In this document: piece after piece, positions 197-11,004 of the stretch | How positions within the stretch are numbered: position 1 is the first letter of the stretch | Layout of the letters: every line of letters begins with the position of its first letter | Source: an uncultured Methanosarcinales archaeon | GTDB lineage: Archaea; Halobacteriota; Methanosarcinia; Methanosarcinales; CAZCCY01 | Direction: 5' to 3' | Length of the DNA: 41,275 nt | Assembly: GCA_964497545.1 (NCBI GenBank) | Contig: CAZCCY010000002.1 | Location: 14,075-55,349 of the forward strand | Translations under genes and position numbers: made by a program | The notes under the pieces: generated by a model | The model's database searches: none | What the model saw: only the letters and a program-made list of their open reading frames with translations | What the model was told of the DNA's origin: nothing

Positions 197-931
197 ATGC
201 TTTCAGTTGTGATTCCAGCATATAATGAAGGACATCACATCTATAACAATCTTCTTAGAGTCCACAACCAGCTTGAGGAATCCCGATGTGAACATGAGAT
301 AATAGTTGTAAATGACGGCAGCCGGGACTCAACCGCCGAGGAAGCGAAAAAAGCCCTGGAAGAAGTAGACGTAATTAAACTTGTCTCGTATTCAAAGAAC
401 ATGGGAAAAGGCTATGCAATCATTGAAGGGATTAAAAATTCCTCTCAGGAACTGGTAACCTTCCTTGACGGAGACCTGGATATCCCACCCGGCCAGATAA
501 AACTGCTGATAGACAAACTCTACGAAACCGGTGCAGACGTAGTAATACAGTCTAAAAGACACAAAAAAAGCATCATAGAAGGATACACCTTCAAAAGGAA
601 GTTTTTAAGTCTATCTTACAACCTCATAGTCAGGATGCTATTCAATCTACCGGTCTCAGACACCCAGGTAGGACTAAAACTATACAGGAGAGAGGTAATC
701 GACAAAATCCTCCCCAAACTCCTAGTCAAACGATACGCTGCAGACCTCGAACAGCTTGTACTAATCCGCAAATACGGATACAAAATCGCAGAATGCCCGG
801 TCCACATCAGATACAAACCCAATGGAGACACAATAGGAATCAGAGACATAGCCAGAATCGCATGGGATACGGCTGCTATCTACTACAGACTAAACATCAC
901 AAAATACTACGACAAGCCAACCCAGTTTTAA
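197..931 (+). CDS. Glycosyltransferase family 2 (dolichol-phosphate hexosyltransferase-like)
   Basis: SVVIPAYNE start, VVNDGSRD, NMGKGYA, FLDGDL (DxD) and DTQVGLKLY motifs typical of DPM1/DPG synthase-like GT2. Confidence 0.9.
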   Translation: MLSVVIPAYNEGHHIYNNLLRVHNQLEESRCEHEIIVVNDGSRDSTAEEAKKALEEVDVIKLVSYSKNMGKGYAIIEGIKNSSQELVTFLDGDLDIPPGQIKLLIDKLYETGADVVIQSKRHKKSIIEGYTFKRKFLSLSYNLIVRMLFNLPVSDTQVGLKLYRREVIDKILPKLLVKRYAADLEQLVLIRKYGYKIAECPVHIRYKPNGDTIGIRDIARIAWDTAAIYYRLNITKYYDKPTQF

Positions 932-1034
932 TCAACAGGTAAAATTTCCAGAAAACGGGGATTGCATCCCTTTGGTTATGCTTTGATTTCACATTATAGC
1001 AAAAAGCATAACCCTATAGAATAAAAAAAGACGT

Positions 1035-1078
1035 TAAAAAATAGAAGGGGAGAAAGGGGGGTGAGTTTCCCCCTTTTC
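1035..1078 (-). terminator. Putative terminator of the tetraheme cytochrome gene
   Basis: On the minus strand: aaggggaaa...tttctccccttc hairpin followed by T-runs directly after the stop. Confidence 0.5.
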
Positions 1079-1082
1079 AGTT

Positions 1083-1802
1083 TTACGGGTTGGCTGCGTC
1101 GAAGCCTGGCGGGTTAACTCCACCGATTGTTGGAGGAGCGGTTGTACCAGTGGTATCGCCAGTCTGGTTACCATAGGTTTCAATGTCAGCTGTGCCAGCA
1201 GCAGCGAAGTTGTCCACAGTCCAGACATGATTGTCATTTACTGTGGCATTCATTACCAGCATGTACCTGTGCTGCCAGTTGATGTCCACTGCCACGTGTG
1301 TGTGACAGCCGATACAGGCTTCGTTTGCACCCTTGAGCAGGTTTGTCTTATTGGCGGGGTCGTCTGCAGATGCTGAATTCACAAATGGCTTGTGTGCCTC
1401 AGCACTACCGTTGAAGATGCTTCTGGCATCGTTTCCTGGACCGGCAGCACCATGGCAGTCCAGACATGCTACAAGGGCTGCTGCATGGAAGTCTGCTGCT
1501 GCCCTCTCTGGATTAGTTCCAGCATTTTTTGTCCATGTCAGACCCTCATTGGTGGGTGCTGTTGACATGTGGCAGCCAAAGCAATCCTGACCCAGGTGAG
1601 CGCTGTTCACAGCTCCTGGCTGGCTGAGCTCCTCTGCAATGTCTGCATGGCATTTCTCACAGGGAATAGCGTTTCCGCTGCTTCCGCTTGTTATTGTATC
1701 GTAGAAGTTGTGCTGTCCTGCGAACAGTGCCATGGTCTGGGGCAGTGCGAACATTCCCACTGCCACTACTGCGAGTCCCAGAAGGACTATTTTATTACTC
1801 AT
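1083..1802 (-). CDS. Secreted tetraheme c-type cytochrome, archaeal extracellular cytochrome nanowire (AvECN-like) family
   Basis: Signal peptide; four CxxCH motifs (CEKCH, CFGCH, CLDCH, CIGCH); LFAGQHxFY, HAA, EAH and ANEACIGCHTHVAVDINW segments recalled from the Archaeoglobus/ANME tetraheme family. Confidence 0.8.
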   Translation of the reverse strand: MSNKIVLLGLAVVAVGMFALPQTMALFAGQHNFYDTITSGSSGNAIPCEKCHADIAEELSQPGAVNSAHLGQDCFGCHMSTAPTNEGLTWTKNAGTNPERAAADFHAAALVACLDCHGAAGPGNDARSIFNGSAEAHKPFVNSASADDPANKTNLLKGANEACIGCHTHVAVDINWQHRYMLVMNATVNDNHVWTVDNFAAAGTADIETYGNQTGDTTGTTAPPTIGGVNPPGFDAANP

Positions 1803-1953
1803 TTTTTATCTACCTCTTATCCTATCCATCTATTTATTTTATCCACCGGCTTTTGCCGGCTTCTCTATCCATCCTTTCCGTTTTTAAGGGAGAGATTATG
1901 CTTTCACTTCCTCTCCTTGTCTTTCCATCTAATATTACTTTTTCAGTTAATCG

Positions 1954-1967
1954 CATATAAGCATTTC
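1954..1967 (-). promoter_or_regulatory. BRE/TATA box candidate for the tetraheme cytochrome gene
   Basis: Minus strand gaaatg-cttatatg about 150 bp upstream of the ATG; gaggt RBS near 1811-1816. Confidence 0.5.
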
Positions 1968-2401
1968 TATTTCGGCTCGGTCCAGTTCAGGTTCTGGACA
2001 ACATAGCCTATTCTCTCTCCTTTTTTATTTACTACTATTATCGAGACGTGAAGAGTATCATTTGGAACCGGATACATTCCTTCCCTGAAACCCAGGGTGA
2101 GGTTGTATTTACCTGGGCCATTGTAGGGTGTGTATGCCCAGGGGCCAATGGAGGAACTTATATTTTTGTATTTAGTGACCCAGACCCTCCCTCCAATTGT
2201 AGGGAAGCTTTCTGCTAGCATTTCTTTGGGTCGTTTGATGTAGTCTATGGTTGCTGGTGTGATGGTGTATTCTTCTGCCCTGACAGTCCCGTTTGTTTCG
2301 TTGAGTAGCATTTCTACCTTGAGTATGGGCACCTTTTCCGTGGGATTTTTGATGCACCCGCTCAGAATAATTAACAGCAGTAAAATAACGGTTTTCTTCA
2401 T
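1967..2401 (-). CDS. Hypothetical lipoprotein
   Basis: MKKTVILLLLIILSGC lipobox; ATG at 2401 preceded by aggtga RBS. Confidence 0.75.
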   Translation of the reverse strand: MKKTVILLLLIILSGCIKNPTEKVPILKVEMLLNETNGTVRAEEYTITPATIDYIKRPKEMLAESFPTIGGRVWVTKYKNISSSIGPWAYTPYNGPGKYNLTLGFREGMYPVPNDTLHVSIIVVNKKGERIGYVVQNLNWTEPK

Positions 2402-2407
2402 TTTCAC

Positions 2408-3055
2408 CTATCCTATCAGTTTGATGAGGGCGTTAAATATCCTGCCTATCAACTGCCAGATGGTTAGGTATTCGGTTTCTGCTGGTATATTATTTTTTTC
2501 ATTTACGGTTCTTGGGACCAGGATTTCCTTGGGGATCTCTTTTTTTCCTTCCAGGTATTGTTCTCCGAATTTTCCGTGGCATGCCGGGCATTTCTTGGCC
2601 AGGTCGGTGTGGACTACGTGGGCTCCACCCTGGTGGCAGGAGAGACAGCTTGTGGTATTGGGTTTCATGAGGGTTCCGTTTTCTATTGGGTGACATTTTC
2701 CACATTTTACATTGGGCATCACCCGGTGGAAGTCCTGGGCTGTGAGCTTGTAGGGGTCGTTGCCCTTGTTTCCTACGTGGCAGCGGATGCAGGGCCTTGA
2801 GCCGTGGAGCCGGCTTATTTTTCCAATGTCGATTTCCAGTCCCCTGGGATTCTCAGGTCTGTTACCGTGACAATTATCACAATACTTTTCGATTTTTTTC
2901 GCTCCCTTCTCGCCGAGGAGGTTGTAGTGGCATTGGATGCATAGCCATCCTGGATGGGATGGGTCTGCCAGGCCGTCTTTCACCTCTGGCAGCTCATATG
3001 CATATGCTACAGATGTCAGCAAGAGCAGTGTCAGCAGGGAGAGGAGGGTTTTCAT
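2408..3055 (-). CDS. Secreted hexaheme c-type cytochrome
   Basis: Signal peptide; six CxxCH motifs (CIQCH, CDNCH, CIRCH, CGKCH, CLSCH, CPACH); amphipathic C-terminal helix. Confidence 0.88.
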   Translation of the reverse strand: MKTLLSLLTLLLLTSVAYAYELPEVKDGLADPSHPGWLCIQCHYNLLGEKGAKKIEKYCDNCHGNRPENPRGLEIDIGKISRLHGSRPCIRCHVGNKGNDPYKLTAQDFHRVMPNVKCGKCHPIENGTLMKPNTTSCLSCHQGGAHVVHTDLAKKCPACHGKFGEQYLEGKKEIPKEILVPRTVNEKNNIPAETEYLTIWQLIGRIFNALIKLIG

Positions 3056-3101
3056 TTTTACTTTATTGTTTTTGTTTCTTTGTAGCTATTTATTATTTCT
3101 T

Positions 3102-4715
3102 TCACCTATCTAATTTTAATTTTATTAGAATATAAACTATGGCCAGGGTCAGTGGTAGGCTGAAGCCTGGGGTTTCTTTGGGGGGCTGTGGCTGTTCCGG
3201 GGGTGGCTGTCCTGGCGGGGAAGGGGTGGAGAGAAGTGGGGTTTCTCTTGGTCTCGGGGTTATGGTTAGGGGGTGTTCTTTTCTCAGCACCCGGATGGTT
3301 GCTTTGTTGGTGGTTTTTTTGTGGTAGTAGCGGGATTGGCGGTAGCCAGGGGTGTAGTGGGGTTTGTCTATTATTTCTAGTTGTGCCGGGGGTAGGTTGT
3401 AGGTTCCGGTCTGGTTGAACTGGAGGGTGTAGGTCAGGGTGCGGGGTTCTTCTGGGTAGAGGATGCCGCTCCAGTTGGGGCTTCCGGTTTTGAGGGTGGC
3501 ATTGGATGGTAGGGTGTCTTTGACTGTTACCACTGCGGCCAGGTCTCCTGAGTTTTTCAGGGTCAGGGTGATGGTGGCGGTCTCGCCCTGTGTGAGCTGT
3601 TTTGGGTCTGCTTTTTTGACTGCTGTGACCTCTGGGCCGCTTACTATTATTTTTGGGGTGTTTGACCTGAGGGTGTAGTTCACCCCCTGGAGTTGCCATC
3701 TCAGAGTGGCGGGTGGGGTGAGGATGGTGCCAGGGGGCCTGGGTTTCACCTGGTATGTGATGCTCTTTTGTCCCCCGGGTGGGAGGGTGAGGTTCCAGGT
3801 GAGGGTTGTGTTGCCCTGGAGGTCGGGTGGCAGGGTGTCTGTCAGGGTTGCATGGGGGATGGGGATGCTTCCGTTGTTTCTGGCTGTGATGGTGATGTAT
3901 GCTGTGTCGCCGAGGTAGATTTTCTCGGAGGCGTATTTCACAAGCTCAACGCGGTGGGCGGGTAGGATGTGGGCGGTTGTTTTGTCGGTTTTCTCGTATT
4001 TTTCTCCCAGGACATCTTCGCCCCAGGCGCGGGCTGTAATCAGGTAGCTCTGCCCTGTCAGATTTGAGGGGGCTTTGAACCTTATCTGGTAGATGGGGGA
4101 GGATTCTCCTGCCTCCAGCTCGTGGAGGTCGAAAATAATTCTGTCCCCGGCAAAACCCCATCTGCCCTCTGGCATCTCCCGGAGGGGGAGGGTTGAGTTC
4201 ACCTCTAGGAAGGCCCTTTTTAGGATGGCTCTTCCGGTGTTCACAACCGAGGCATTAACCGTGATGGTGTCACCCGGGGTGTATTCCTCCTGGTCGGTGA
4301 AGACCGTCACCCTTATGCCAGGTCTGCCCCGCACCCTCACCCTGATTTTAACCCAGGTGTCAGCCTCCACAATCCCGCTTCCAAACACAGGCTCGGTGTA
4401 GTTAACCTTGACCAGGGTGATATTCAGGATATTGTTGAAGACCGAGACATCTCCAGCCCCCATCACAGCCTCGAACACCCTATCCCCCTTCTTATCGTAG
4501 ATGGAGATGAAGGCTGATTGGTTTAAAATGTCTGTAGCCTCGATGGTGTAGCCCTCTCTTTCCAGGGTGTCGCCCATGTGGAGTATGGATGTCCGGGGGT
4601 TCACCCATTCAATGTCTGAATACAGCGATTGAACTGGAATCGGCAAGAGCAGGAACAGAACGACAAAGAGGATACACCCTCTCTTTTCAAGCCTCTCTTT
4701 CATTCTCAGGTTCAC
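3102..4715 (-). CDS. Cell-surface protein with DUF11/BatD-like Ig repeats and PGF-CTERM sorting signal
   Basis: Signal peptide, repeated T-ITxTxxNxG...xDTLP modules, Pro-rich linker, C-terminal TPGF + hydrophobic + basic tail (archaeosortase A substrate); start may be 4703. Confidence 0.8.
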   Translation of the reverse strand: MNLRMKERLEKRGCILFVVLFLLLPIPVQSLYSDIEWVNPRTSILHMGDTLEREGYTIEATDILNQSAFISIYDKKGDRVFEAVMGAGDVSVFNNILNITLVKVNYTEPVFGSGIVEADTWVKIRVRVRGRPGIRVTVFTDQEEYTPGDTITVNASVVNTGRAILKRAFLEVNSTLPLREMPEGRWGFAGDRIIFDLHELEAGESSPIYQIRFKAPSNLTGQSYLITARAWGEDVLGEKYEKTDKTTAHILPAHRVELVKYASEKIYLGDTAYITITARNNGSIPIPHATLTDTLPPDLQGNTTLTWNLTLPPGGQKSITYQVKPRPPGTILTPPATLRWQLQGVNYTLRSNTPKIIVSGPEVTAVKKADPKQLTQGETATITLTLKNSGDLAAVVTVKDTLPSNATLKTGSPNWSGILYPEEPRTLTYTLQFNQTGTYNLPPAQLEIIDKPHYTPGYRQSRYYHKKTTNKATIRVLRKEHPLTITPRPRETPLLSTPSPPGQPPPEQPQPPKETPGFSLPLTLAIVYILIKLKLDR

Positions 4716-6882
4716 CCATGTTTATCTGGATTATTCCTCCGCTTGTCACCTCGTCTTCGCTGACAGATACAGATATTAACTGGTTGTTTAATTTCATTTC
4801 GTAGCCTGCTGTGGTGGGGTAGGGTACTGTGAAATTGAAATCTCCTCTGCTGTCAGCTTTTGTGGCCTGGAGGTAGGTGAGTCTCCGGCCCTGGTTTGTC
4901 AGAATCTGGAGGGTCAGGTTCACCTGGCTTCCTGGCAGGGTTTTTCCTTTTATTTTTGCACCTGGGACATACTCGAAGATTTTAATGTAAGGCACAGGCC
5001 TGTTCAATAACGGGTCATAGGCTAAACTGCGGGTCTCGTAGACCAGCCGGTAATGCTGTAGCCCTCTGCCGTCCAGGAGATAGAGCCTTGCATACATTGT
5101 CCTGAGATACCTCCTACCTGGCAGGCCGCTGGGGTCCAGATAGTCCCGGAAGCTCTGGCCCAGGGTGGAGACTATGGCAGGGAAGGTGCCGGAGAGGGTG
5201 AGGATGTTCCCTTCACTGCGAATGTTGAGACCCATCTTGTGGTCCAGGATAACATATCTTGCCCGGTGGCGGTCCATTAACCGGTTTGCGTTTGTCTCGT
5301 TCTCTGAGGTGAGGAACTCTGCAGACTCTTTCAGGCCGAGCTGGAAGTTGTTGGCCACTACCGGCCGTTTTGAGAGGTATTCAATCCAGTGGCCATAGTC
5401 CCACCAGTTCATGACACCATACTCAGGTGGGTAGCCGGGCGTGTTGAAACTGCTGGTGGCCGGGGTGGCTCTTTCCAGCCAGGAGAGGGCTTCCAGCCAG
5501 TCAGAATTGGGCCGGGGAGGGTTTTCTGCAAGAGCGAGGTCTATCTGGAAGCTTGAAACCCCAACAAGGACAAGAACCACCACAGGGATAGCATTAGACC
5601 TTGTGAGCCGGTTGAAAATTGTGAGCTGGTATAGGAGGTATCCTGTGAGGATTGCCAGGTTAACCGAGAGGAGATAGGCAAACCGCCGCTGTAAAATGGC
5701 GAGAGTGAAATTTACAAGCGTCCAGACCAGAAAGAAAACCTCGCTCGAGGATGCCTTTTTCTTGTACAAGAGGAGTGCTAGACCTGCCAGGGCGGTGTAG
5801 AAAGTCAGGGCAAAGGCGTTCCACACTGGTCGCAGGGTGAACTCGCCAAAAAAAGTGTAAAACATGGGTAGAGACTCGCTTATCTGCTGTATCGCCCTGT
5901 CCTGGCGGAGGAGGAAGGAAACACCCCCCTCCCCACTGGAAAGCCAGAGAAAACCAGCCACCCCGAGTATTCCGGCTGCCACGAGATAGAGAGGTCTGGC
6001 CCTGGAAACGGTGTAAATCAGGAGATATGCCAGCAGGTTTACCAGGAGGAAGATCACCTGGAACCAGGAGAGAAAGTTCTGGGAGACCTCTGGAGTCCAG
6101 GGCACCCCGGCAAGATATGCCAGGAGGAGCAGGTCCAGGCTTACCAGGATAGAAATTATGCCTGTAACAGCAAGCGGCCTGGAAGACACACCCCTGCGGG
6201 AGTTAACCGTGAACTGGATGAAAGAATAGACCAGGAGGATGCCAATGAAGATGGGAGCCCCAAGCCAGGTTAAAAGAGAGACAGCAATCAGAACACCGGT
6301 GGAAACCGTGAAAAAGAGGAAACGCCTGTTTTCAGCGAAACTGGCAAGACCAATGTTTTCACCACATTTTAGGGCTTTTAGAAAAGAGAGGTAAATCAAC
6401 ACTGAGAAGAGAACCTCGCTGATATGGTGGTCGGTGAAACCCAGAAACGAGATCTGGACATGGATAGGGGAAAGTGCAAGCACAAAAACCGCGAAAAGAC
6501 TGGCAATCTCACCGAAAATCTCCCGCCCTATAAGATATACCGCGACAAGAGACAGAAGCCCCAGGAGCACCGGGAAATAGGCTCCTACATATTCCACCGT
6601 CCGGGAGCTGGGATTTCCAAGGCCCACCAGGAAAGAGACCGTGGAGATTGCTAGGTCATAGAGTGGCGGCCAGTTAACCGGCGCCCCAGCCGGATAGTTC
6701 ATATAGGAATCTGAGGCCAGCAGTGAAGGAAAAACAGCCACCCTCCGCATGTGATAATAGGGGTCAGCCCCAAGAAAAACAATCCTGTCGCCAGAGAACA
6801 CAGCAGGAAACGTCAAAAGCCTGACACCATAGCCCATAAGAACAATAAGCAGAACAGCCAGAACTTTTTTGTCCCTATCCAT
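4687..6882 (-). CDS. aglB: Oligosaccharyltransferase AglB (STT3 family)
   Basis: DPYYH, DHH, QRRF and WWDYG motifs; multi-TM N-terminus with soluble C-terminal domain. Confidence 0.95.
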   Translation of the reverse strand: MDRDKKVLAVLLIVLMGYGVRLLTFPAVFSGDRIVFLGADPYYHMRRVAVFPSLLASDSYMNYPAGAPVNWPPLYDLAISTVSFLVGLGNPSSRTVEYVGAYFPVLLGLLSLVAVYLIGREIFGEIASLFAVFVLALSPIHVQISFLGFTDHHISEVLFSVLIYLSFLKALKCGENIGLASFAENRRFLFFTVSTGVLIAVSLLTWLGAPIFIGILLVYSFIQFTVNSRRGVSSRPLAVTGIISILVSLDLLLLAYLAGVPWTPEVSQNFLSWFQVIFLLVNLLAYLLIYTVSRARPLYLVAAGILGVAGFLWLSSGEGGVSFLLRQDRAIQQISESLPMFYTFFGEFTLRPVWNAFALTFYTALAGLALLLYKKKASSSEVFFLVWTLVNFTLAILQRRFAYLLSVNLAILTGYLLYQLTIFNRLTRSNAIPVVVLVLVGVSSFQIDLALAENPPRPNSDWLEALSWLERATPATSSFNTPGYPPEYGVMNWWDYGHWIEYLSKRPVVANNFQLGLKESAEFLTSENETNANRLMDRHRARYVILDHKMGLNIRSEGNILTLSGTFPAIVSTLGQSFRDYLDPSGLPGRRYLRTMYARLYLLDGRGLQHYRLVYETRSLAYDPLLNRPVPYIKIFEYVPGAKIKGKTLPGSQVNLTLQILTNQGRRLTYLQATKADSRGDFNFTVPYPTTAGYEMKLNNQLISVSVSEDEVTSGGIIQINMGEPENEREA

Positions 6883-6997: not shown

Positions 6998-8176
6998 TTA
7001 TTTCGATGGAAGTTCTTCCAGAATTGATTGGGCACTGGCTATCAATGTTTCCCTTTCTTCTCTGGTTGCCAGGCGTGCCCCCTCTGCGAGGTTGGAGGTG
7101 ATTACCTGGTATCTTCCCTGGAGGGTCTCTTCGGCTTTTGATTTTATTTTGTCTAGGTTTTCGGGTGTTGTGAGTATGGCTATGGAGGGGCCGGTGTCGA
7201 TGGAGTAATATGCTGGGATGTTTTGTTTTTTAAGTTCATCAGCCATTTGCATCAGGGCGATTGTCTCGGGTTCCCAGGCTATAATACCGCTGGGGCCTGT
7301 CATCATGACAGCACGTAGCATCCTTGTATCTTCTTCTGCAATTCTCCCTATTTCATCGATATTTCTACTTTCGATGGCTTTGATTAGGTCTAATACGCGT
7401 TTGGGTTTCAGTGAGGCCCATTTCTCATAAAAAGGAGATAATAGGGCTTCATCGTGGACTTTCTCTGTTTTCAGTTTCATTGGCATGGGTATCACAGCCA
7501 GTTTCAGGGGGAGGGTGCCGTCGTCGATTCTTACTGCGTAGCATTCCTTGTGTTCTATTTCTGGGTGGGAGAGCCAGAGGGAGATTCCGCCTGTGGCAGA
7601 GCGGGTTGCCGAGCCGCTAAGCAGCCTTGCATAGATTGAGACAAGTCTCTTGTTGTTGCCGATGGCCTCTCCAAAAGCTGCGGTAATCAATGCCTTGGAG
7701 AGTGCACCGCCTCCCGAGGAAGAGGTGCCCAGCCCTTTACCAGTACCCTCTTTAAAATAGTTTTTAGAAACTACAAGTATCTTTGTTTTAATGCCGGTAG
7801 CTATTCTAAACGCATCTACCATCTGCATTACTCTTTCCCTTGCCCTTCCCTCTTCTTTCCTGCCATCTATGATGACAACGTCTTCCTTGAGTCCAGGATC
7901 GAATTTGACGTGGGTGACGGTTTTGAGCGAGTCATGGCAGAGGGATATTGAGGGAAAATAGGCTATTCTTAGATTGTTATCAACCATTCCCAGGTATTTC
8001 TGGATTCCGAGTATGGGGTAGGCGACTGAGGTGGCTTCTCCCTCTACCTCTGTCTTTTTGGGCAGGCTAGGTAATTTTTCGTTCAGGTATCCTTTTTCAC
8101 AGAGGTATCTGATAATCTCTTCTGTCCCGTTCTCGATTCTGGTTATTGTCTCTCTGCTGATGTTTTCTCCTGTCAT
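6998..8176 (-). CDS. Diphosphomevalonate decarboxylase family protein, probably mevalonate 3,5-bisphosphate decarboxylase
   Basis: AYPILGIQKYLG...PSISL, GLGTSSSGG GHMP loop, ARLLSGSATRS, catalytic Asp in SIDTGPS; about 45 aa N-terminal extension; operon context. Confidence 0.75.
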   Translation of the reverse strand: MTGENISRETITRIENGTEEIIRYLCEKGYLNEKLPSLPKKTEVEGEATSVAYPILGIQKYLGMVDNNLRIAYFPSISLCHDSLKTVTHVKFDPGLKEDVVIIDGRKEEGRARERVMQMVDAFRIATGIKTKILVVSKNYFKEGTGKGLGTSSSGGGALSKALITAAFGEAIGNNKRLVSIYARLLSGSATRSATGGISLWLSHPEIEHKECYAVRIDDGTLPLKLAVIPMPMKLKTEKVHDEALLSPFYEKWASLKPKRVLDLIKAIESRNIDEIGRIAEEDTRMLRAVMMTGPSGIIAWEPETIALMQMADELKKQNIPAYYSIDTGPSIAILTTPENLDKIKSKAEETLQGRYQVITSNLAEGARLATREERETLIASAQSILEELPSK

Positions 8177-9075
8177 TAAATTGTATTGAAGTCTGTCCGT
8201 TCTTTTTCAAGGTTTTCAACCAGGGATGGTTGCCCTATCCCGCTTTCACCCAGCTCAACAAGTCTCTTTATCCTCTCAAATATAATGTCCAGTATCCTAT
8301 CAAATGCACTTTCCCCCTCATCAGTGCTTATGACAGGTATGCTATATCTCCTAGCTTGTTCACACTGGTAGTCCTGTATTATCCTGTATATGTCCAGCAC
8401 ATCCAGGAGCCTCCTGGCCCCCCCTTTCAGGTGGGTTTTCCTGACCCTGTTTTTTATTCTCTCCCGATGTATTTCCTCTGAATCCAGCCTCAGCACCACA
8501 GGTATCACGCTAGGGTGATTCAACACCTCGATGTTGAATTGTTGCGGGAGGAAGTGGAGATACTCATAGACCATGGACTCCCCATCCCTTATGCCCCGGT
8601 CCACCACAACTCGCTCCATGGCTCTGTTCATTATTTCTGCCTGGGCCTCAAACCCTTTTATTATATTCTCCTCAGTCAGTTCTCCAAAAAATTTCCAGGA
8701 ACTGTAAACCGAGGAGAAAAAGAAAGGGTTCTCCTTTTTAGAGACAAAAGCCCGCAGCGCAGCTCTGAAAGCATCTCCACCCATGACATTCCCAATTCCC
8801 AGAGAGGTCGCCACCTCTCTCGCCATGGTTGTTTTACCCACTCCAGGCACAGCCGCGAATAAGGGTAATATCGGCTCCCTGAGACGCCCCGACCCTGTCA
8901 GCTCCCGGTATTCCCTGTAGGTCAAATACCTCTCATAATATTTCTCTCCTTTATTTTTCAGCCAGGATTCAAAACCCTGGGGAGATAAACCTTTGAGGGG
9001 GGAAATCAACTCCCCGATTTCCCGGAGGCTCAAACCGGTAGCCAGCAAAAGGCTGTATTCATCATCATATATCAT
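8176..9075 (-). CDS. 2-phosphoglycerate-kinase-like P-loop kinase, probably mevalonate-3-phosphate 5-kinase
   Basis: Walker A-like AVPGVGKT, GGDAFRAALR, EYLHFLP, IQDY motifs of the 2-PG kinase family; translationally coupled between two MVA decarboxylase-family genes. Confidence 0.7.
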   Translation of the reverse strand: MIYDDEYSLLLATGLSLREIGELISPLKGLSPQGFESWLKNKGEKYYERYLTYREYRELTGSGRLREPILPLFAAVPGVGKTTMAREVATSLGIGNVMGGDAFRAALRAFVSKKENPFFFSSVYSSWKFFGELTEENIIKGFEAQAEIMNRAMERVVVDRGIRDGESMVYEYLHFLPQQFNIEVLNHPSVIPVVLRLDSEEIHRERIKNRVRKTHLKGGARRLLDVLDIYRIIQDYQCEQARRYSIPVISTDEGESAFDRILDIIFERIKRLVELGESGIGQPSLVENLEKERTDFNTI

Positions 9076-10027
9076 ATTTTATAAACGGTGGGCCAGCTAC
9101 TTTGTACTTCAGAGCCCTGTATTTTTTCAGCTTCTCCCCAACCTCCTCCTCATCCCGCACAGTACAATAAACATAAACCATGTTCCCCCCAGCAACTGTG
9201 AAATACACCTGAACTCCTGTCTCCCTCATCTCCCGGACACAATTTGTCACCTCATACATAGGGTCTTTTATCACCCTGACACCCACCCATTCCAGGAGGT
9301 AATGGAAATTCATGGCATCCTCCTCAGCTATCCTCATCAACTCCACCAAATCATTTTTTTCCACCGCCCGCAAAGCCCTCGAAACAACCTCCTCCCTCCC
9401 CTCCACCCTCTCCCAGAACTGTGGATGAGTAACAATCTTCTCATGAATCGTGTCAGCACTGTAACGCTCCCCCTCAAAAGGAATCGCAAATATCCTGAAA
9501 TCCCTTAAATCACCCTCACTGGCCACCTGCCTCGCCCTACACCTCTCCCCCACCACCTCTGTAAGAGAAAGCCCCCCCACCATGCTGCGATAGACACTTT
9601 CTGATGCAAACCTCCCTATCTCCATTAATTCATCTTTTTCAATATCCAAACCAAAAAAATCAGAAATAGCCGTAACCAGAGCCGCGGCACCAGCATCAGA
9701 ACTACCAGTAACTATATTATAATTATTAGAATATATCCTGAGACCGCCGTGATAACCAGCTCGACTCCTCAAAATATCGATTGCCCTGAAAATATCTTCC
9801 GACCTTGTACCCGGCACTTTTACCAGCCTCTCCCCATTGATAAAGAACTCAACTTGCCCCCCCTGACCTCCACTTACAACCGTTTCTGTTCTGACAGACT
9901 CTCTATCATCTGTAACAGCCAGACCCATGGTAGTGTAGAAAGGTATCCTCTTCTCTCTATTTTTCAATCCACCCAACAAGAGTACCGGAATAGTCGGATA
10001 CGCAACCGCCGTAGTTCGCTCCTTCAT
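9065..10027 (-). CDS. Mevalonate 3-kinase (Thermoplasma Ta1305-like)
   Basis: AYPTIPVLLLGG, GSSDAGAA, SESVYRS, DTIHEKIV, AEEDAMNFH, TVAGGNMVYV closely follow the remembered Ta1305 sequence; the decarboxylase Asp is absent. Confidence 0.85.
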   Translation of the reverse strand: MKERTTAVAYPTIPVLLLGGLKNREKRIPFYTTMGLAVTDDRESVRTETVVSGGQGGQVEFFINGERLVKVPGTRSEDIFRAIDILRSRAGYHGGLRIYSNNYNIVTGSSDAGAAALVTAISDFFGLDIEKDELMEIGRFASESVYRSMVGGLSLTEVVGERCRARQVASEGDLRDFRIFAIPFEGERYSADTIHEKIVTHPQFWERVEGREEVVSRALRAVEKNDLVELMRIAEEDAMNFHYLLEWVGVRVIKDPMYEVTNCVREMRETGVQVYFTVAGGNMVYVYCTVRDEEEVGEKLKKYRALKYKVAGPPFIKYDI

Positions 10028-10152: not shown

Positions 10153-11004
10153 TGTATAGTCCCATAAATTTTTTCGCATTAGACTCTTTTCAATATTTTC
10201 AGACATATTTTCACAACCCAAACAGTCTATAACCTATTCCAAATATGGCTTCTGGTGGCATTTTTCTCCAGAATGCCTGTTCTGGTGTCTCAAGTTCCTC
10301 AAAATTCAAACTTCCATGAGGTCTGTTGTTATACCAGTCAACAAACTCTTCAATTTTCACGTTTGTTTGTGGATGTTTTACCCTTACCAGGATTGGTTTA
10401 ATTCCGTATTTCAGTATATGCTGTTTAAATTCGCCATCCCATTCTCTTTTCTCATGGATCCTATGGGCCCCAAATTCACTCCCATGATCCATGATAAGTT
10501 CTCTCAAAGGGCAAATTGACCAGTATCAGTAGTTGTAAAATACATCGCTGCATCATGCGGTTTTCAGTGCTGCATTCACAATGTGATAATTCCGGCCCAG
10601 CATATTGTTTTTAGCATTTTGATTTTACAAGTACTGAATATATCCTGCTGACATACTATGCTTTCGTTCATATCTGACCCATTTCCGTCTCTTCTTTTAT
10701 TCTTGCTCCGAATTTAAAACGGTGGAAAGCTTCCTTGACAATCTCAGCTTCCTCTGGATTGTAAGGTCTCTTTGGTCTGCCAAGATTCAATCCTACTACT
10801 GGTTCTACACCAGTCTCTCTATATTCTTTCCATATCTGTTCCACCCTTCTTCTCGATATTTTCATGTCTTTTGCGATAGCTTCACTCGATTCTCCTTTTT
10901 TCTTATGGTTGATTATATAGCGAATTTTCCTCCTGTTCAGCTTCACACCCTGAACAGAAATTTCAGGGTAATATGGGATGCGAAATTTTTTTTGGGACTA
11001 TATA
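10153..11004 (-). mobile_element. Degraded IS481-family insertion sequence
   Basis: Imperfect ~27 bp terminal inverted repeats (tgtatagtcccataaattttttcgcat / atgcgaaattttttttgggactatata) enclosing transposase fragments; no target duplication seen. Confidence 0.8.
10211..10946 (-). pseudogene. IS481-family transposase pseudogene
   Basis: N-terminal HTH fragment (10668-10946) and integrase-core fragment DHGSEF...HPQTN...YNNRPHGSL (10211-10507) in separate broken ORFs. Confidence 0.85.

Follow-up and report, generated by a model that had tools for sequence, protein, structure and literature searches.

How the cytochrome filaments of archaea are made, anchored and fed with electrons is named as an open gap for the methane-oxidising archaea in passages of one article (PMC13046784). 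Here we ask whether a run of five genes in an uncultured Methanosarcinales archaeon encodes a cytochrome of the filament-forming kind together with proteins that serve it. The window, by which we mean the whole stretch of 41,275 nucleotides (nt) that was analysed, is part of contig C2 (CAZCCY010000002.1) of a 1.6-Mb assembly of 123 contigs that is 91% complete. On its minus strand, at positions 1083-6882, AglB (an oligosaccharyltransferase) is followed by D (a DUF11/PGF-CTERM protein), H (a hexahaem cytochrome), L (a protein with a lipobox) and T (a tetrahaem cytochrome). This co-directional run had been outlined in an initial annotation made from the letters of the window, and its layout and coordinates proved correct in every detail. 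The run is a real, conserved extracellular-electron-transfer cluster and more than a chance arrangement. As the best explanation of the whole, we favour on balance one transcription unit that builds and services, at the surface of an Mcr-bearing and multihaem-rich archaeon, a cytochrome of the type of AvECN, the subunit of which the extracellular cytochrome nanowire of Archaeoglobus veneficus consists (PDB 8E5G), reportedly described by Baquero et al. in 2023. That the run is an assembly system, as the initial annotation had read it, is offered here as a hypothesis.

The features of the run are the following (aa, amino acids; ArtA, archaeosortase A; AF2, AlphaFold 2).

4687..6882, minus strand: AglB paralog, oligosaccharyltransferase, 731 aa (TIGR04154; Pfam AglB_core-like, AglB_L1 and STT3)
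5392..5406, minus strand: WWDYG motif of AglB, residues 493-497 (read from the sequence)
3102..4715, minus strand: D, secreted glycoprotein of several Ig-like DUF11/CARDB domains, ending in a PGF-CTERM-like tail, 537 aa (Pfam BatD, DUF11 and CARDB; TIGR01451)
3105..3170, minus strand: PGF-CTERM-like sorting signal of D, residues 516-537 (read from the sequence; ArtA in the genome)
2408..3055, minus strand: H, hexahaem c-type cytochrome with a signal peptide and a conserved C-terminal helix, 215 aa (six CXXCH)
2411..2476, minus strand: C-terminal amphipathic/hydrophobic helix of H, with a YPTI-type motif in homologs (alignment of 21 homologs)
1967..2407, minus strand: L, predicted lipid-anchored Ig/FN3-like beta-sandwich protein, 146 aa (lipobox; AF2 model)
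2354..2365, minus strand: lipobox LSGC of L, residues 15-18 (read from the sequence)
1083..1802, minus strand: T, AvECN-family tetrahaem cytochrome and candidate filament subunit, 239 aa (match to 8e5g_A; four CXXCH)
1019..1077, minus strand: terminator-like G5/C5 hairpin (GGGGG/CCCCC) with T runs, closing the operon (read from the sequence)

AglB and D overlap by 29 nt, or by 17 nt if D starts at the ATG at 4703, which is the likelier start, its homologs beginning at the corresponding position. D and H are separated by 46 nt, the stop codon of H abuts the start of L (a gap of 0 nt), and 164 nt lie between L and T, directly after whose stop codon the hairpin and T runs follow. The motifs that the initial annotation had counted, six CXXCH in H, four CXXCH in T and the N-glycosylation sequons NGS, NKT, NAT and NQT in T, are all there.

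T belongs to the AvECN family

A phmmer search of all PDB sequences with T returned a single entry, 8e5g_A (E 6.8e-24), in two stretches covering residues 3-218. With a profile of the T family (59 sequences), the same chain was matched over its residues 5-251 at E 2.3e-58, the next entry standing at 5e-7. The initial annotation had likened the tetrahaem to the filament subunits of both A. veneficus and Pyrobaculum calidifontis (PcECN). The first comparison is borne out by both searches, in which T aligns with the A. veneficus subunit over its whole length; the second is not, since 8E5F (PcECN) was not returned when the PDB was searched with the T family profile at E<=1 (26 rows), so that no sequence relation to PcECN was detectable.

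T and AvECN are homologous over the full length at about 30% identity, keep four CXXCH motifs and four distal His, and share a signal peptide followed by a GQH arm as well as a C-terminal beta-sheet region. Exactly eight His are invariant in the 59-sequence alignment, namely the four CXXCH His and H31, H69, H106 and H137. All eight align to His in 8e5g_A, and eight is the number required for four bis-His haems. H31 lies within a strongly conserved LPxT-ALF-GQH arm just past the signal peptide. Judged by these alignments, T is a new member of the known A. veneficus filament (AvECN) family, with the difference that the filament is solved for A. veneficus, whereas the window T is known here from sequence alone. 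Among the T paralogs of this genome it is the best AvECN match (6.8e-24, compared with 1.1e-14 for the copy on contig C38 and no match for the copy on contig C11), and its identity to the Methanoperedens orthologs is 55-59%.

Relatives of AvECN have been recorded in other archaea. According to sections of PMC13748539, 'Ca. Methanoperedens vercellensis', of group 2d of the anaerobic methanotrophic archaea (ANME-2d), carries in a second cytochrome cluster a four-haem ECN homolog that is 29% identical to AvECN. It resembles the window T in being an AvECN homolog within a cytochrome gene cluster; the window genome is of a different family in the same order. Homologs of the A. veneficus wire are also noted for the Methanoperedenaceae, with filaments yet to be visualised (passages of PMC13046784), and the Methanocellales homolog MmcX is likened to AvECN in parts of PMC11176372.

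Three smaller points concern T and its paralogs. The C-terminus of T (window 1083-1110, minus strand) carries a ..G(F/W)(D/N)xxNP tail that is common to the nearest Methanoperedens homologs and absent from distant members. A class III (pilin-like) signal peptide was considered for T and rejected, as neither G nor A stands where cleavage would be expected. Two further T-family loci occur in the same genome: on contig C11 (L056) the order is a 62-haem giant, a T-like gene, an L-like lipoprotein and a 5-haem cytochrome, and on contig C38 (L054) a 2-haem cytochrome, T and a 35-haem giant.

H and L accompany T across the phylum

A 301-genome sample of the phylum was searched with the L, T and H profiles, and the matches were tallied. 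T was found in 45, L in 44 and H in 40 of the 301 genomes. L was present in 42 of the 45 genomes with T, H in 38 and both H and L in 37, as compared with L or H in 2 of the 256 genomes lacking T. Both of these exceptions, which are 82% and 87% complete, hold H and L together. H was nearly always single-copy, with no H match between E 1e-15 and 1e-39. Of the 39 genomes having both H and L, 28 carry the two genes side by side. The distribution is patchy but concordant within families f9 (46 genomes; T in 16, L in 15, H in 16) and f16 (38 genomes; T in 18, L in 19, H in 18), and in several complete f9 genomes H, L and T lie within 5-30 kb of one another. This pattern is as expected for proteins working together. 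The association of H and L with T, which the initial annotation had drawn from the window, thus extends across the phylum in this sample. Because of the phyletic linkage and the H-L neighbourhood, we regard H-L-T as a conserved trio, and D and AglB as lineage-specific additions. A single-copy hexahaem H and an Ig-like L in near-perfect co-occurrence with T offer two concrete candidates for filament machinery.

The alignment of H homologs revealed 11 invariant His and one further Met/His column, so that all twelve haem ligands are found inside H; the conserved C-terminal helix comes after a YPTI-type motif. Compared with the PDB, the H family profile gave generic multihaem matches only. At residue M112 (window ~2720-2722, minus strand), Met is found in the window and in Methanoperedens-type rows and His in the other rows, which in these sequences hints at a switch between His/Met and bis-His ligation at one haem. 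The second haem site of H (window 2867-2881, minus strand) is CXXCH here, CXCH in most Methanoperedens-type or ANME-1-type homologs and CX3CH in one locus (L040); CXCH, if real, would be an unusual haem-attachment motif.

The AF2 model of L (predicted local distance difference test, pLDDT, 91.8) is an Ig/FN3-like beta-sandwich. A Foldseek comparison with the PDB returned nothing at E<=0.001, the best rows being a Bacteroides peptidase N-domain and, weakly, the soluble domain of FlaF. A wide structure comparison brought up many Ig/FN3 domains, with 4df9_A scoring highest (Z 7.7), and scores in an Atlas structure search were at most 0.84. As far as the model goes, these matches are generic and no function is derivable from them. 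The family of L is small: a sequence search with L alone found 2 proteins, and the L profile found 38 clusters, all unnamed and none with a Pfam domain. The anchor is an SGC lipobox in Methanoperedens-type rows and a transmembrane helix elsewhere; the LSGC of the window agrees with the lipobox pattern L-[AS]-[GA]-C, and lipid modification of L is predicted.

AglB and D are linked to the trio in one lineage

Window AglB scores 525 bits on TIGR04154 (cut-off 450) and carries WWDYG at residues 493-497, which we take to be the catalytic motif of STT3/AglB enzymes. The genome has two AglB genes. The other one, on contig C92, is longer (864-866 aa) and scores 729 bits, and the two are 27% identical. 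The 41 genomes of the order mostly have one long AglB (~820-900 aa), and several have an extra shorter one. In a quick IQ-TREE (LG+G4, SH-aLRT) of 48 of the 49 AglB frames (at least 600 aa; one frame of 488 aa was left out), 31 long copies separated from 17 second copies with a support of 100 on each side. Window AglB, on a long branch (0.85) and with an odd amino-acid composition, grouped with six AglBs from ECN clusters of Methanoperedens-type genomes (SH-aLRT 99). On the evidence of this tree, it is a distinct paralog that was inherited with the cluster and not the housekeeping copy, which agrees with the initial annotation, where a dedicated paralog had been suspected. In one genome (G008), a second AglB (L170, G008:C10, ~172.7-173.8 kb) consists of two short frames of 193 and 150 aa and looks like a pseudogene.

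The AglB/ArtA/PGF-CTERM glycoprotein system (TIGR04154, TIGR04125) was reportedly set out by Haft et al. in 2012. The window resembles it in that AglB has a PGF-CTERM protein as its neighbour and the genome encodes ArtA (contig C40, 235 bits against a cut-off of 75); it differs in that window AglB is a shorter second paralog, tied in one lineage to a cytochrome cluster. The tail of the D family, (P/A/G)GF followed by a hydrophobic stretch and a basic end, is found in 12 of 12 rows (the window and 10 distinct homologous loci, one fetched twice). This tripartite tail and the presence of ArtA point to D as a PGF-CTERM/ArtA substrate, an assignment that follows from reading the motif, as no PGF-CTERM family came up for D in an NCBIfam scan at E<=0.01. 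Passages of PMC5244752 mention archaeosortases, and some cytochromes of ANME-2 that bear a PGF-CTERM signal. D holds 13 sequons where 3.3 are expected and L holds 6 where 1.2 are expected; in 1000 shuffles, 0 reached 13 for D and 0 reached 6 for L.

To compare gene order, the open reading frames (ORFs) of 91 fetched loci were labelled with profiles built from the window proteins; for H the one-round version with 33 hits was used, a third round having drifted to 253 cytochromes and been discarded. Synteny had been named as a check in the initial annotation, and seven distinct loci of the Methanoperedens type (L040, L059, L060, L062, L063, L064 and L121) have AglB, D, H, L and T in this same order. 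L040 lies on the same contig as L067, the AglB of L060 and the T of L121 are truncated by a contig end, and L063 is labelled Ca. Methanoperedens sp. BLZ2. Three further loci (L039, L065 and L066) have D, H, L, T and T, without AglB. The 12 Methanoperedenaceae-labelled loci included H in 8, L in 10, D in 8 and AglB in 6, and the 19 remaining loci, outside the Archaeoglobi and ANME-1/Syntrophoarchaeum labels, had H in 5, L in 4, D in 1 and AglB in 1. Many labelled loci end at contig ends, so that the linkage counts are understated. In a FastTree of 134 T proteins (three duplicate loci, rows outside 190-300 aa and rows with fewer than four motifs excluded), all 10 D-H-L-linked T genes, including that of the window, fell into one clade of 14 rows with a local support of 98.

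The Methanoperedens cluster stands in a larger island, with a beta-propeller protein and glycosyltransferase (GT2/GT4) genes upstream and an 11-haem T-family protein, a ~330-aa protein (unk337), a CARDB protein and a ParA-like ATPase downstream (L059, L063, L067). Here, homologs of island genes are found on contigs C4 and C45 (11-haem T-family and 330-aa proteins; CARDB, ParA-like and 210-aa proteins), and AglB-D-H-L-T are contiguous. The family of T was known; new are an operon, conserved between genomes, in which a private AglB and a PGF-CTERM glycoprotein stand with the cytochromes, and an H-L-T trio that spans the phylum. The terms AglB, STT3, oligosaccharyl and lipoprotein are absent from the main text of PMC13748539, and a PGF-CTERM protein does not appear in the relevant passages of that paper. 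In the full-text literature, nothing was found that links an AglB/STT3 oligosaccharyltransferase with these cytochrome clusters; supplements and figures fell outside its scope, and an earlier description of the H-L pair or of the AglB linkage is possible.

A proposed surface cytochrome and its partners

The genome that carries the run is the sole member of its family, and sister families of the same order include Methanoperedens-type genomes. It encodes mcrA (937 bits, cut-off 768), five CcmF-type matches and 17 reading frames with at least three CXXCH, including frames with 62 and 35 motifs. Because of mcrA, ArtA, the CcmF-type genes and the 17 multi-CXXCH frames, we take the organism to be an archaeon that carries Mcr and has the equipment for extracellular electron transfer.

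In the mechanism that we propose, T would be exported and would stack into a haem wire like its A. veneficus relative, by way of the N-terminal arm with its conserved His. The C-terminal helix of H would keep this cytochrome at the membrane. Together with the lipid-anchored L, which is translated right after it, H may form a partner on the outer face of the membrane that charges or holds T, as the co-occurrence of the three suggests. D might be a heavily glycosylated surface protein, processed and lipid-anchored by ArtA, and the AglB paralog might N-glycosylate the exported products of the cluster, above all D and L. The trio H-L-T would be an old and widespread core, to which D and AglB would have been added in a lineage shared with Methanoperedens. 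For the roles that the initial annotation had assigned, a membrane adaptor for H-L and a scaffold through the S-layer for D, we have inference only.

The retention of a private AglB in the operon across two families suggests N-glycosylation as part of the design. This fits the OmcZ-type wire of Ca. M. vercellensis, for which glycan-like densities are reported at 10 of 11 sequons in parts of PMC13748539. The Geobacter OmcS/OmcE systems, as presented in sections of PMC12954529, are similar in their logic: next to the gene of a polymerising multihaem subunit lie genes for accessory proteins devoted to it and for a small cytochrome, which possibly charges the wire. In both OmcS and OmcE, according to the same sections, a haem at the interface is ligated by His of two subunits. 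The Geobacter systems differ in that no sequence relation was detected, the envelope here is archaeal, and the accessory set of the window comprises a lipoprotein, a hexahaem cytochrome, an archaeosortase substrate and an oligosaccharyltransferase, unlike that of Geobacter.

Weighing the proposed transcription unit against the alternatives

A number of observations weigh against one unit devoted to an AvECN-type wire. The AF2 model of T, built without haems from the 59-row alignment, has a pLDDT of 59, and a Foldseek search with this low-confidence model gave 8e5g as the sole match at E<=0.001 (9.6e-7), yet with a template-modelling score (TM) of 0.28. In Ca. M. vercellensis, the structure of the thick filament coinciding with ECN was not resolved, as stated in passages of PMC13748539. 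No His, Cys or Met is invariant in the alignment of L, in which P69 is the only invariant residue, and L cannot therefore be a haem ligand. As the genomes counted include relatives that are not independent of one another, co-occurrence lends the trio less support than the numbers suggest, and no probability is attached to them.

The 25 Archaeoglobi-labelled loci had H in 3, L in 1 and neither D nor AglB in any (0 and 0), a difference from the window, in which the T gene shares an operon with both; the 20 ANME-1/Syntrophoarchaeum-labelled loci had H in 3, L in 5 and again no D and no AglB. Given these 0/25 and 0/20 counts, D and AglB are not needed for the T family in general. AglB is missing beside 3 of the 10 D-H-L-T clusters, which argues against an obligatory role; with these counts, D and AglB cannot serve as assembly factors in general. 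In G008, whose D-H-L-T cluster lacks AglB, the second AglB is two fragments ~120 kb away. The AglB beside H-L-T in genome G001 falls in the other ('mid') subclade of second copies, and the linkage of AglB with cytochromes may therefore have arisen more than once. The initial annotation had also pointed to the four sequons of T (NGS 131, NKT 151, NAT 185 and NQT 212), an argument that finds no support, as their number is not above chance: the shuffle mean is 2.5, and four or more occurred in 215 of 1000 shuffles. The sequons of H are likewise not enriched relative to shuffles.

Glycosylation of the cluster's products by the AglB paralog, which we infer, is the weakest step of the mechanism because of the clusters without AglB, the fragments in G008, the lack of sequon enrichment in T and H and the glycosyltransferases that flank the Methanoperedens clusters. 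These flanking genes suggest a broader, alternative glycan pathway.

The same facts bear on a tentative possibility, to which we give less credence than to the transcription unit: AglB and D may make up a module for envelope glycoproteins at large and provide many surface proteins with a second route of N-glycosylation, as in the common linkage of AglB with archaeosortase targets. Such a module would merely stand beside H-L-T and render it no private service. Besides the clusters without AglB and the unremarkable sequon counts of T and H, such a module would account for the description of TIGR04154 as 'archaeosortase A system-associated', for the three D paralogs elsewhere in the genome (contigs C31, C81 and C23), for the bigger Methanoperedens island with its GT2/GT4, beta-propeller, CARDB and ParA-like genes, and for the seven 'mid' second-copy AglBs of other genomes, which stand away from cytochromes, with no cytochrome, D, H or L nearby within flanking stretches of 2.8-19 kb. 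It does not so readily account for the contiguity of AglB-D-H-L-T across a family-level divergence over which the rest of the island is dispersed, for the single clade that the linked genes form in both the AglB and the T trees, or for the AglB/D overlap and the closure of the whole run at one terminator-like site.

A stronger version of the preferred reading appears unlikely to us. In it, cytochrome nanowires of archaea would be made and anchored by a system of H, L, D and the private AglB, a counterpart of the accessory machinery of Geobacter OmcS, with H-L as a universal base at the membrane that seeds, holds and charges the polymer of T, with D carrying the wire through the envelope and with glycosylation by the dedicated enzyme required if assembly is to be correct and insulated.

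Most doubtful is that T is a small multihaem shuttle between membrane and S-layer, with H-L as its membrane-bound donor, instead of a filament subunit: the idea draws on the small multihaem cytochromes of ANME, Syntrophoarchaeum and some Archaeoglobales that passages of Chadwick et al. (PMC9012536) describe as one widespread group with very high transcription and see as membrane-S-layer intermediates, on the up to 11 T-profile matches per genome, on the T-like genes here that also adjoin the 62-haem and 35-haem giants and on the single member for which an AvECN-family filament is solved, but it is at odds with the full-length homology of T to that solved subunit, including the N-terminal His arm and all ligand His, and with the rank of the window T as the best AvECN match among the paralogs. 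One transcription unit around an AvECN-type cytochrome is, on balance, the explanation that we favour.

Neighbouring genes

One further gene of the window faces the operon.

197..931, plus strand: GT2 glycosyltransferase of the dolichyl-phosphate-sugar type, convergent with the operon (Pfam Glycos_transf_2, E 4.4e-30)

A part for this enzyme in glycan synthesis, as a partner, is possible; its identity to the GT2/GT4 genes beside the AglB paralog in two Methanoperedens loci is 21-27% only.

Directly upstream of AglB, at window positions 6998-10027 on the minus strand, three co-directional genes resemble a Thermoplasma-type mevalonate route, each scoring under the cut-off of its model: a mevalonate-3-kinase-like gene (186 bits, cut-off 440), a gene like mevalonate-3-phosphate-5-kinase or 2-phosphoglycerate kinase (144 bits, cut-off 250) and a gene like bisphospho- or phosphomevalonate decarboxylase (218 bits, cut-off 560). 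A search of the 40 other genomes of the order (E<=1e-10) found the kinase-like protein in none of them. Beyond them, at 10211-10946 on the minus strand, two short ORFs resemble integrase-core and helix-turn-helix fragments and are probably the remnant of an insertion sequence.

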